A stretch of DNA of 64,000 nucleotides from Myxococcota bacterium (lineage in GTDB: Bacteria; Myxococcota_A; UBA796; CAJQPC01): contig DASCPX010000127.1 of assembly GCA_036012755.1 (NCBI GenBank), forward strand, positions 78,373 through 142,372, read 5' to 3'. The number at the start of each line of letters is the position of its first letter. Positions within the stretch are counted from its first letter, which is position 1. Below, piece after piece: positions 10,738 through 15,316 of the stretch. The position numbers were made by a program, and so were the translations under genes. Below the pieces are notes generated by a model. The model made no database searches. It saw only the letters and a program-made list of their open reading frames with translations, and was not told the DNA's origin.

Positions 10738-12702
10738 CTACATGTCGTCTTCGGCGAGGACGACCAGGCCGTCTCCGCGGTTCAACGTGACCGGCGTGTC
10801 CTTGAACGGAATGAGCTTCACTCCGAAGTTCTCGCTGGCTTCCGACTCCAACTCGGCGAGCTTGTACCCGAGGCAGATCTCCGTGTCGCGCTTGCGGACA
10901 AGCGCCATCAGATCCCCGAAGTTCACCGTGACCGGGAACTCGTCGAAGTAGAGCCAGGCAGGCTTCACGTAGATCTCCGAGCCGTCTTCCTGGAACAGAT
11001 CGTCGTAGACGTCCTGGATGTCCGGCTCCTCGGAGATCTGGGCGAACATCATCGAGACCATGCGGTTGCTGATGATGAAGTCGTTGACCCCAGCGCGGCT
11101 GATGAGCTCCTGGTTCGCCGAGTCCAGGACCTCGGTGATGAGGTTCGTGGTGACGTCGCGGCCCGCGCTCCTGGCCGCGCGCTGGAGCTTGCGGAGGTGG
11201 AGCAGCACGATGATGGTCTCGGAGTCGACCCGCTCGGCGTCGATGTCGTCCATCGACTGCTTGAGGATGATGACGGTGTCGTAGGCGAAGGGGTCGACGC
11301 TGGCGAGATCCTCGCTGGCCATCGGGTCCAGTCGCAGCAACTTCGTGCCGACGTTGTCCAACTCGCCGTTGAGATCGTCCAGCGCCTTGGTGACGTGCTC
11401 TGGAGGGTCCTTCAGCATGACGTGGACCTCTGAGCCCTCCAGCACGTAGTCGCTGTACTCGGAGATCAGGATGGAGACCTTGGGCGACCAGCCGAGGATC
11501 AGCATGCGCTCCTTGCCCGGCTCGATGCGCACGTCCTTTCCGACGAGGTCCTTCGGCGAGTAGACCGGGTCCTTCTGGAAGTCGATCGTGGAGTCGTCGT
11601 CCGCCACGATCAGGATCTCGTCGCTGTCGTTCATCTGGTAGTCGGGATCGGTCCGCATCTCGATGGTGCCGTCAGAGGTCCGGATGCCGAGCGGGACGCC
11701 GTCAGGGAAGTGGAACTGGAGCGCGCCGAAGGTGATCCCGCCCCACGCCGCGTTGTGGAAGTACATCTCGCAACCCTCGAAGGAGAGAAGCTCGGCGTAG
11801 ACGACGGACAGGCCGCTGGTCCGCGAGGTCTGGACCATGATCTTGGCGAGGATCTCCTGTGCGTCGATGACGCTGATGCGATCCGGGGCGAGGTCCTGGA
11901 CGACCCGGCGGTTCCGCGGGTCGAAGACCTCTGCGACGATGACGATCTCGCTGTCCTCGCCCACGTGGGCGATGAGGGCCAGGACCGTCTTGATGACCTT
12001 CGCGTCGCTGGAGAGCTTCTCCTCGGCGGTCGCGGCCTCACCGCAGGTCGCCAGCACGATGGCGCTCTTGGCGCGCTCGGCGTTGACCTTGCCGAGGTTC
12101 AAAAGCGACGCTGTGGGGCCGGAGCGGGTCACCAGGCGCAGGTTCCGCCGGTCGGTCCAGACGTTCCGGAGGTACTCGTCCATCTCCTCCTTCTCCTCCT
12201 CCGAGAGCACGACGGCGACCGGGTCGTCGTCGCTCTCCTGGGCCTCGACCAGCTCGCGGAGGATCTCGGGGACGCGCGGGCCCCAGCCGACGATGAGCGT
12301 GTGGTCGCTCTCGAGGACCCGGGAGTGTCCCTTCTTCAGCTGGTCGATGGCCTGGTCGAGCGCGGTCGTGAGGAAGGCGATGAGCGCGGAGAAGATGACC
12401 ACACCGGTCATGCCGGAGATGATCGCGGTGACCTTGTAGGCGCCGAAGGTGGTGTTGTCCTGGGCCATGTTGCCGGGGTCGGTCAGCTGGAGCCAGGTGA
12501 ACCACACGCCCTGGGCCAGCTCGTGGGCCGTGTCGTTGAAGGCGCCGTCGAGGCCCCAGAGGGCAAGGCGCAGCACGACGATGACCAGGAACGAGACGAT
12601 GAAGGCGACCGTCAGGGCGATGAAGAGCGCGCGGCTCCCCTTCGCCAGGAAGGTGTCGACCTGGTAGCGGAGCTTCTCGCCCAAGGTGGCTTCGATGGAC
12701 AT
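10738..12702 (-). CDS. CASTOR/POLLUX (DMI1/SYM8)-like ion channel
   Basis: Two TM helices around a TDPGNMAQD filter (plant ADSGNHAD). KGHSRVLESDHTLIVGW, SGLSVVYAELLSFEGCEMYF and DGSEIYVKP motifs, with tandem RCK domains. Confidence 0.88.
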   Translation of the reverse strand: MSIEATLGEKLRYQVDTFLAKGSRALFIALTVAFIVSFLVIVVLRLALWGLDGAFNDTAHELAQGVWFTWLQLTDPGNMAQDNTTFGAYKVTAIISGMTGVVIFSALIAFLTTALDQAIDQLKKGHSRVLESDHTLIVGWGPRVPEILRELVEAQESDDDPVAVVLSEEEKEEMDEYLRNVWTDRRNLRLVTRSGPTASLLNLGKVNAERAKSAIVLATCGEAATAEEKLSSDAKVIKTVLALIAHVGEDSEIVIVAEVFDPRNRRVVQDLAPDRISVIDAQEILAKIMVQTSRTSGLSVVYAELLSFEGCEMYFHNAAWGGITFGALQFHFPDGVPLGIRTSDGTIEMRTDPDYQMNDSDEILIVADDDSTIDFQKDPVYSPKDLVGKDVRIEPGKERMLILGWSPKVSILISEYSDYVLEGSEVHVMLKDPPEHVTKALDDLNGELDNVGTKLLRLDPMASEDLASVDPFAYDTVIILKQSMDDIDAERVDSETIIVLLHLRKLQRAARSAGRDVTTNLITEVLDSANQELISRAGVNDFIISNRMVSMMFAQISEEPDIQDVYDDLFQEDGSEIYVKPAWLYFDEFPVTVNFGDLMALVRKRDTEICLGYKLAELESEASENFGVKLIPFKDTPVTLNRGDGLVVLAEDDM

Positions 12703-13714: not shown

Positions 13715-13804
13715 GCCGGAGACGATACCGCGGTGGTCGGACACAGGCCTGGATGCGCCCTGGGGGGCTTGCGGTGCCGCCCCGACCGGTGTGGGACTGT
13801 GCCC

Positions 13805-13858
13805 ATGAGTCACCTCGTCAGCTGTTGTTGTTGTCCCACCTCGGCCGAGGTGCGTTGA
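13805..13858 (+). CDS. Putative poly-cysteine leader peptide MSHLVSCCCCPTSAEVR
   Basis: ATG AGT CAC CTC GTC AGC TGT TGT TGT TGT CCC ACC TCG GCC GAG GTG CGT TGA directly upstream of cysH. Too short for the ORF track. Confidence 0.7.
   Translation: MSHLVSCCCCPTSAEVR
13837..13852 (+). promoter_or_regulatory. Perfect 16-bp palindrome/hairpin that sequesters a GAGGTG SD-like sequence
   Basis: CACCTCGGCCGAGGTG is its own reverse complement and begins 2 nt after the last Cys codon. Confidence 0.6.
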
Positions 13859-13868
13859 CGACTGCTGA

Positions 13869-14558
13869 CTGACGCAGACGACACGCCAACCACAGCTCTG
13901 CCGCCCCGGAACCGAGGACGCCCTCGAGGTCCTCGACTGGGCCACGCGCCGCTTCGCCGGTCGCCTGGTGCTCAGCACGTCCCTGGGACCTCAGAGCATC
14001 GTCGTGCTCGACCTGCTCACCCGCCTCGGGCGCGAGGTCGACACGGTCATGCTCGACACGGGCCTGCTGTTCAACGAGACCTACGCGCTGCGGCAGGAAG
14101 TCCAGGAGCGCTTCGGCGGCGAGGTGAAGCGCGCGACCGGCTGGTCGTTGAGGGAGCAGGAGGCCTCGATGGGCCCGCGGCTGTGGGAGCGCGACCCCGA
14201 TCGCTGCTGCGCCCTCCGCAAGGTCGCTCCGCTGCGAGAGCTGCTCGGCGGCTACGAGGCCTGGATCTCCGGCATCCGCCGCGACCAGTCACCCGCCCGC
14301 GCCAACGCAGAGGTCGTCGAGTGGGACGAGAGCTTCGGCCTCGTGAAGATCAACCCGCTGGTGGCCTGGACTCGCGACGAGGTCCAGGCCTACATCCGGC
14401 TCCAGGGCCTCCCGGTGAACCCCCTGCTGTCCCAGGGCTTCGGCAGCGTCGGCTGCTGGCCCTGCACCCACCCGAGCGCCGACGAGCGCGGCGGACGTTG
14501 GGTCGGCCGCGCCAAGACCGAGTGCGGCATCCATCTCTGCCCGAAGGAGACCACGTGA
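13869..14558 (+). CDS. cysH: APS/PAPS reductase, 4Fe-4S type; start uncertain
   Basis: LDTGLLF, CCALRKV, GIRRDQS, KINPL, SVGCWPCT and ECGIH motifs. The homologous N-terminus (ALEVLDWA) lies upstream of the track start, and the frame is open only from CTG 13869. Confidence 0.9.
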   Translation: MTQTTRQPQLCRPGTEDALEVLDWATRRFAGRLVLSTSLGPQSIVVLDLLTRLGREVDTVMLDTGLLFNETYALRQEVQERFGGEVKRATGWSLREQEASMGPRLWERDPDRCCALRKVAPLRELLGGYEAWISGIRRDQSPARANAEVVEWDESFGLVKINPLVAWTRDEVQAYIRLQGLPVNPLLSQGFGSVGCWPCTHPSADERGGRWVGRAKTECGIHLCPKETT

Positions 14559-15316
14559 ACCGCTCCCACATCGGAACCCAGCGCCGCATCGCCGGGACGG
14601 TCGAGGCCGTCCGCGCCGAGCTCGACACCTTCGAGACCGAGATCGCAGCGATCTCGCCAGAGGGACCCCTCCTGGTAGCGATGAAGCTCGACCTGGCGCA
14701 CGTGCTGGTGGTCGGCGGCGGCGCGGTCGCCACCCAGCGGGCCCGCTCACTCCTGTACGCCGGCGCCCAGGTGCGGGTGGTCGCTCCGCGGGTGTCGCCA
14801 GAGCTTCGCAGGCGCATCGCCTGGGGGGAGATCGCGTGGTCACAGAGGCGCTTCGAGGACAACGATCTCGACCACATGCAGCTGGTGATGGTGGCCATCG
14901 ACGACAGGGACGAGAGCCGTCGCGTAGCCTCGGCGGCCCGGTCGAGGTGCATCGCGGTGAACGTGGCGGATGTGCCCACGTTGTGCGACTTCTACATGCC
15001 GGCGAGCCACCGGGAGGGCCCGGTGCAGGTCGCCGTCTCGACCGGCGGAGTAGGCCCGGCGATCGCCGCGCGGGTCCGCGACCTGGTCGCGGCGGCCTTG
15101 CCCCCGGAGCTGGCGGAGGCCACACGGCGATTCGGCCAACTACGCAAGATCGTTCGCGAGCTCGAGCCATCACGAACCCGTCGCATGGAGCTCCTGGCGA
15201 GGATCGGGCGCAAGACGCCCTGGAGCGAGCTGGCCTGCCTGGAGAGCCGGAGCTCACTCGGAGCGGACGAGGCGCCTGCGGCGGCAGACCAGGAGCACCG
15301 CGAGGCCAGCGGCTGA
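14555..15316 (+). CDS. Precorrin-2 dehydrogenase/sirohydrochlorin ferrochelatase (CysG N-terminal, Met8/SirC type)
   Basis: VLVVGGGAVA, VNVADVPTLCDFYMP and VAVSTGG motifs. GTGA overlap with cysH and an AAGGAG SD. Confidence 0.88.
   Translation: MNRSHIGTQRRIAGTVEAVRAELDTFETEIAAISPEGPLLVAMKLDLAHVLVVGGGAVATQRARSLLYAGAQVRVVAPRVSPELRRRIAWGEIAWSQRRFEDNDLDHMQLVMVAIDDRDESRRVASAARSRCIAVNVADVPTLCDFYMPASHREGPVQVAVSTGGVGPAIAARVRDLVAAALPPELAEATRRFGQLRKIVRELEPSRTRRMELLARIGRKTPWSELACLESRSSLGADEAPAAADQEHREASG

Follow-up and report, generated by a model that had tools for sequence, protein, structure and literature searches.

The window, a stretch of 64,000 nucleotides from a Myxococcota bacterium (genome G000), carries a very short open reading frame (ORF) with four consecutive cysteine codons directly before the sulfate-assimilation gene cysH, which raises the question of whether this ORF belongs to a cysteine-sensing attenuator, by what mechanism such an attenuator would act, and whether this copy still functions. 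In classical attenuators such as E. coli trpL and Salmonella hisL, a leader ORF rich in the end-product amino acid is combined with an antiterminator and an intrinsic terminator. In the available parts of the literature, cysteine attenuation has been demonstrated for translation alone, in mycobacteria, and a terminator form figures solely as a prediction upstream of cysS.

Leader ORF and Hairpin in the Window

The first-pass annotation of this DNA had described a 17-codon ORF with four TGT codons, a perfect 6-bp hairpin, three alternative complementarities and a leader stop codon that overlaps a TTG at 13855, and all of them are present in the sequence. The elements of the leader region are as follows.

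13767..13804, + strand: likely promoter region of a presumably leaderless or near-leaderless transcript, with a TTG-type -35 (13769-13774) and a non-consensus -10
13805..13858, + strand: poly-Cys leader ORF, 17 codons, ATG-led, assigned to the terminator-type family by its sequence, its orthologue in the relative L047 and its match to the covariance model R1
13823..13834, + strand: four TGT (Cys) codons, the putative sensor, with an in-frame Cys cluster in relatives
13837..13852, + strand: 6-bp hairpin, identical in L047, whose 3' part (13844-13850) is predicted to serve as the antiterminator strand, its partner being deleted in the window
13855..13872, + strand: 5-codon mini-ORF starting with TTG, overlapping the leader stop codon and with its own stop codon overlapping the CTG at 13869, which lies in the cysH frame

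The TGT codons are in the minority in this genome, where the long ORFs use TGT for 2014 of 15071 Cys codons (13%), as the annotated dominance of TGC had implied. ATG-led ORFs of ≤45 codons with four consecutive Cys codons occur five times in the 6.7 Mb of the genome, and the window leader is the sole match of the family model R1 in it (E 0.03), with the model having been trained without this leader. No further Cys leaders were found upstream of the cysK-like and sat loci of the genome. ORF-terminal runs of four Cys codons with Tyr-rich tails were observed on contigs C129 (219324, 220012) and C138 (36262), which resemble protein C-termini and not leaders. The genome encodes one tRNA-Cys, and a tRNA-Sec gene is also present. 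It gave 21 MYXO-CTERM matches, compared with none in 14 control genomes, which makes an origin from Myxococcota likely. A consensus promoter scan of the window leader region gave no match; a promoter-down change at the -10 was considered and dropped, the -10 of L047 being non-consensus too, and the extra A seen in the L047 -10 belongs to an upstream stop codon. An Rfam scan of eight loci returned only Trp_leader, whose score of 24.6 bits (E 0.53) falls short of the gathering cut-off of 41.

An Intact Relative and the 89-nt Deletion

Among 80 metagenome loci, which are a sample from a larger collection, L046 matches the window exactly; the closest relative is L047, which is syntenic and encodes a CysH that is 79% identical. 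The upstream channel gene common to L047 and the window matches at 83% over 1.2 kb, and homology in the leader region begins at 13767 (32 of 39 columns by alignment, also seen with blastn). From the Cys run on, the two leaders differ at one position in 42 nt, with a dS for cysH of 0.62-0.72. A Castor/Pollux-like ion channel gene at 10738-12702 of the window is syntenic in L047. The mini-ORF is present in L047 too, so it was inherited, but the CTG frame is closed there by a stop codon.

In L047, the leader is followed by a 10-bp intrinsic terminator with a U-run (1913-1938), a Shine-Dalgarno (SD) sequence and a TTG start codon for cysH. No intrinsic terminator with a U-run was found between the leader and cysH in the window, where 89 nt lying between two 6-nt repeats are missing relative to L047, and the junction is marked by a single repeat copy.

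13886..13891, + strand: deletion scar, a single CCAACC copy; in L047 this 6-nt repeat flanks the 89 nt that hold the terminator, U-run, SD and cysH start

The polarity of this deletion is judged from one close relative together with the family pattern. An assembly error at the junction was rejected: of eight runs examined, X1, X5, X6, X8 and X12, from four studies, have contigs in which the junction is unchanged, X7, X9 and X13 do not cover it, and X1 is a possible source of the window DNA, a caution that also holds for the full-length X5 and X6 contigs. The leader region of the window, taken as a whole, folds no better than shuffled sequences (z -0.69), against z -4.12 for the intact leader of L047.

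The comparison also gives the hairpin a different meaning. Its 3' arm can pair with the 5' arm of the L047 terminator, with a duplex of -20.7 kcal/mol against a shuffled mean of -14.3 (p 0.028), suggesting that this arm is the antiterminator strand of a transcription attenuator and not a mask over an SD.

The cysH Start and the Truncated Operon

Downstream of the scar, the remains of a sulfate-assimilation operon were identified.

13886..14558, + strand: cysH body of the APS-reductase type, with iron-sulfur Cys motifs and invariant Cys columns, over the cut-off of the NCBIfam models PRK02090 and TIGR00434, without SD or canonical start
14555..14644, + strand: the first ~30 codons of sulfite reductase (sir), residues 1-30 matching the L047 sir start at 57% (E 2e-6), with the remaining ~2.1 kb absent
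14639..15316, + strand: N-terminal (dehydrogenase/ferrochelatase) half of CysG, fused in frame to the sir stub, with the methyltransferase half absent

Of the two sulfate-assimilation genes that had been annotated behind the leader, cysH was confirmed, and its Cys motifs are presumably those of an iron-sulfur APS reductase; the supposed cysG proved to be the sir stub joined to the N-terminal half of CysG. The closest CysG (G013) is full length and continues for 471 aa, and the methyltransferase half was absent from the whole window contig. The cysH frame is open only from the CTG at 13869 and contains no ATG, GTG or TTG before 13968, with the family models matching from about 13914. The in-frame near-cognate codons have no SD, their duplexes ranging from +0.7 to -1.3 kcal/mol against -6.6 at the L047 start. 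The TTG at 13855 was rejected as a cysH start, as it lies in another frame and opens the 5-codon ORF that ends at 13872, and so was a programmed frameshift at the mini-ORF stop, for which inspection revealed no slippery or re-pairing site.

In relatives, the operon order is cysH-(cysK)-sir-cysG, and sulfite reductase is present in 16 of 17 other genomes with the same cysH clade. Neither sulfite reductase (NIR_SIR profile; tblastn with three Sir proteins) nor CysD was found in the window genome, which is 96% complete. Sulfite reductase occurs in only 2 of the 21 other genomes of the family, showing that its loss is the family norm. The window genome has a second cysH (L336:3250-5472, contig C14) behind a methyltransferase gene and a B12-binding radical SAM gene; this second type occurs in 19 of the 21 family genomes, most of them without sulfite reductase, and its role is likely not assimilation. 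A possible candidate for the displaced half of CysG is the solo CobA on contig C9, but the match extends over just 11 nt and is out of frame (E 0.04). This exact match, between 15227-15237 of the window and the sequence before the solo CobA, falls at both domain boundaries in different frames and is probably due to chance.

Distribution of the Leader Family

A Cys-rich upstream ORF (uORF) precedes cysH at 16 of 18 loci of the same cysH clade in the order and at none of 27 other cysH loci, the upstream sequence of one of these extending for just 120 nt; as the genomes are kin, these counts are no independent test. The leader was also present before all five clade cysH genes of another family of the same class, outside the order. 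In the rest of the phylum, where the survey reached 4 kb upstream, a near leader was found at 0 of 40 cysH loci (of 90 matches outside the class), and there was one far match at -3.9 kb. In four genomes with a separate sir, this gene bears a leader of its own, suggesting that the leader follows the pathway. The search upstream of the cysteine genes of relatives that the first-pass annotation had proposed thus recovered poly-Cys leaders before cysH, sir and cysK/M, which bears out the proposed tie to cysteine-pathway genes. The Cys cluster is kept in frame in relatives with a mixture of TGT and TGC and with interrupting residues, and is therefore not a microsatellite. Homology, co-occurrence within the clade and conservation of the Cys frame establish that the leader family is real, and the window leader is a genuine member of it.

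The covariance model R1, built from 15 terminator-type leaders and run on 151 genomes, gave 30 matches in 25 of them, comprising 11 known loci and 19 new ones. Eighteen of the 19 new sites hold a poly-Cys ORF, seven lying before cysK/M, nine before one family of RimK-like ATP-grasp ligases, one before a YeeE-type pair and one without a gene behind it. ThiS-ThiF-rhodanese genes follow at four of the seven cysteine-synthase sites. In L379-L382 (G153, G057, G152 and G026), the Cys leader precedes a cysM-type gene and then genes for a JAB protease and ThiS-ThiF-rhodanese, a sulfur-carrier route, and at least in G153 there is a second Cys run behind the first terminator. An orphan Cys leader with a hairpin and no gene on the same strand behind it was seen at L368:1500-1600 (G013, contig C9).

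The ATP-grasp ligase (L351:541-1485 in G002; L383-L412) occurs in 75 of 154 genomes of the order and was not found in the window genome. A Cys-run ORF lies upstream of it in 15 of the best 30 of the 75 genomes, two of these ORFs having no clear start, and the antisense control gave none. A PDB search with the ligase found no match and its neighbours are not conserved. The cassette gives this widespread enzyme a likely sulfur role.

Among 80 named loci, two Anaerolineae and one Ca. Aquilonibacter have leaders close to cysH, and four Actinobacteria have them ahead of sir. The former loci (L129, L149 and L160) have a poly-Cys leader and a terminator before cysH, and L129 has two successive terminators. 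L037 (G133) has no leader; about 180-160 nt ahead of the cysH anchor lies a long palindrome, part of which is repeated in a second copy. The palindrome resembles a repressor operator, which suggests that a transcription factor may have replaced the leader. In L036 (G092) and L292, the clade cysH and sir have no leaders, and the cysH match contains a TGA, so the cysH of G092 is possibly another decaying copy.

Two Leader Types and Their Codon Bias

At 26 loci of the class, 17 terminator-type and 19 SD-type leaders were recognized, the former including the window leader and one case with a weak U-run, both assigned by homology. Ten of the 26 loci carry two leaders in series, with the terminator type always first: a TGT-rich leader with a terminator is followed by a TGC-rich leader with an SD hairpin. 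A promoter-like pattern (TA...T placed 6-9 nt upstream of the start, together with a TTG -35), whose spacing would fit a leaderless transcript, was observed at 14 of 26 first leaders, the window and L047 not being among them, and at none of ten second leaders. TGT makes up 58 of 78 Cys codons (74%) in terminator-type leaders and 42 of 121 (35%) in SD-type leaders, compared with 13% in the genome (Fisher p 5e-8, which is overstated, the loci being related). On the CysH tree, whose deep forks lack resolution, the two architectures lie dispersed.

Computed Tests of Switching

Stalling was modelled by masking the ribosome-covered RNA up to 9 nt past a Cys codon and compared with a mask at the stop codon. 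The 41 leaders include 19 true terminators, and one further flagged hairpin is an SD hairpin. Capture of the terminator 5' arm averaged 0.73 with the ribosome at Cys and 0.21 at the stop and was higher at Cys in 18 of the 20 flagged hairpins (0.74 and 0.38 in L047), a contrast that is partly trivial because less masking leaves more partners. In 10 of 20, the antiterminator duplex surpassed the shuffled controls (p<0.05), and stall-state pairing was above the shuffled mean in 18 of 19, with p<0.05 in 8 of 19. The ribosome-free state also favours the antiterminator (mean 0.69), unlike in trp. Covariation is weak: the antiterminator showed five doubly changed cells, a number reached by 53 of 500 shuffles, and is 81% paired with three doubly changed pairs, not beyond shuffles; the terminator is 92% paired with one doubly changed pair, and the helix of SD-type leaders is 91% paired with one doubly changed cell.

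The SD is paired in most of the SD-type leaders, and the hairpin is robust. At equilibrium, release of the SD on stalling was predicted for 1 of 20, and among truncated transcripts for 7 of 15 (four loci without a stable anti-SD were dropped, and the window and L123 were left out), which makes the translational tier less certain. The family probably works as a transcription attenuator that is often doubled by a translational tier.

Proposed Mechanism and Fate of the Window Copy

We consider it likely that the window ORF belongs, as the leader, to a transcription attenuator which senses cysteine by means of the ribosome, and that this copy was broken recently and is now a relic without terminator and cysH start. 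Where the element is intact, as in L047 and at least 15 further loci of the class, scarcity of Cys-tRNA would stall the ribosome on the Cys codons, and the leader strand behind them could then pair with the 5' arm of the terminator, so that the terminator would be disarmed and RNA polymerase would read into cysH-(cysK)-sir-cysG. When cysteine is ample, the ribosome would cover the antiterminator strand, leaving the terminator free to form. Many relatives have another poly-Cys leader behind this one, which likely controls access to the SD of the first gene. The deletion between short repeats took away the terminator, the SD and the start codon of the window copy, and sir and half of cysG were lost in two other events; with all these parts gone, this copy has most likely ceased to exert any useful regulation. 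A broader and more tentative reading, which may well prove wrong, is a class-wide cysteine ribulon built on a two-tier switch, in which a short UGU-rich leader gates termination and a second, longer UGC-rich one on the same mRNA gates the ribosome-binding site, with one tRNA setting two thresholds via synonymous codons; the ATP-grasp ligase would be a sulfur-scavenging or thiol enzyme, and the window a regulon being dismantled as sulfate assimilation is given up.

The state of CysH itself fits less easily with decay. Its changes number 11 against 10 for L047, so the relaxed selection that was looked for is not seen, and dN/dS is about 0.25, which points to a recent loss or to a gene that is still functional. 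Moreover, the CTG frame and the sir-cysG fusion are both in frame, which is expected by chance in about 1 in 9 cases and counts against a relic. The operon might instead have been rewired and be working, with loss of the terminator making it constitutive, a relay of 4-nt stop/start overlaps leading translation to the CTG at 13869, and the APS reductase and CysG N-half kept for another use. All three joints are NTGA overlaps, the CTG is in frame only since 90 nt in total differ from L047, a ribosome on the leader frees it from 0.03 to 0.96 in the folding model, and solo CobA and Sat are encoded elsewhere in the genome. Yet the overlaps were inherited from L047, the CTG has no SD, and a second cysH exists in the genome. 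The CysG N-half is absent from both same-genus genomes, and no user of sirohydrochlorin (CbiX, an Ahb-type domain or sir) was found in the window genome; co-option of this half was rejected for want of CbiX or an Ahb-type domain. On balance we regard a rewired operon as improbable.

The mechanism first proposed for the window, in which the hairpin hides an SD and stalling on Cys codons frees cysH initiation, now appears very unlikely, even though GAGGTG is SD-like (-5.4 kcal/mol) and relatives do have SD-sequestering leaders. The orthologue L047 has its SD and start about 100 nt downstream, behind the intrinsic terminator, the TTG at 13855 is out of the cysH frame, and when the window was folded with a ribosome footprint, GAGGTG remained mostly paired in every stall state (P free 0.13-0.22). 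We give equally little credence to functional Cys-rich micro-peptides that bind metals or thiols, or to an RNA acting without translation. Cys clusters could bind metals, and the helices are kept in sequence more than by covariation, but the non-Cys residues are unconserved, the length varies, the number of Cys ranges from 3 to 10, and the leaders keep a fixed position before cysteine-pathway genes and terminators, with an antisense control of 0/30. Least credible of all is a chance GTT microsatellite or an assembly artefact: although the genome has 128 runs of at least four TGY triplets, frame and position are conserved across dozens of loci with mixed codons, and the junction is identical in contigs of four studies, which refutes this alternative. 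Compared with these alternatives, we favour a broken transcription attenuator, and the window copy would accordingly be the wrong one to assay and shows the need to compare such leaders with their relatives.

Comparison with Known Systems

Like trpL and hisL, the family has a short ORF rich in the pathway amino acid, a predicted antiterminator and an intrinsic terminator with a U-run before a biosynthetic operon. Unlike them, it senses cysteine, appears to be often leaderless, is often paired with a second leader and places one shared cassette before several unlinked genes, and its window copy has no terminator. The Lyubetsky group has reportedly made further predictions of Cys leaders (2010, 2014).

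The mycobacterial polycysteine leaderless sORF attenuators, or 'Cys ribulon', exert translational control (Canestrari et al., bioRxiv 10.1101/834739); according to the available part of that report, no previous case of attenuation by a Cys uORF was known to its authors. As there, poly-Cys uORFs, many apparently leaderless, lie here before several cysteine loci, and the second leader type appears to hide the SD. In contrast to those attenuators, which act on translation and for which the accessible text reports no terminator, the window leader is of the terminator type, has its Cys codons in the middle of the ORF with a separate pairing strand behind them, and comes from another lineage; the window copy has no SD-led in-frame start that could be sequestered in the mycobacterial manner. 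The Cys leaders predicted earlier by Seliverstov et al. (PMC1262725) are, in the portion available, without terminators. A related element is uORFC-8-2 before cysS in Rhodobacterales, a predicted Cys uORF with an intrinsic terminator (PMC8632094), which differs, as far as the accessible part describes it, in having two Cys codons, preceding only cysS, being alphaproteobacterial and having neither sulfate-reduction genes nor a tandem form. Searches of the open literature found no report of myxobacterial, tandem or ATP-grasp-linked Cys leaders, and the available parts of PMC3862929 and PMC4833913 hold nothing on Cys leaders or UGU, though their supplementary leader lists could include these loci.

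The family thus offers many natural terminator-type and tandem variants for testing, and its UGU bias can be used to test directly if starvation thresholds are tuned by synonymous codons that share one tRNA. For the tandem form, the Salmonella mgtCBR attenuators, which sense ATP and proline at transcription according to the part of the report available (Lee and Groisman, PMC3641672), likewise have two leader ORFs in series on one mRNA; unlike these, both leaders are Cys-rich here and seem to work in turn on transcription and on translation.
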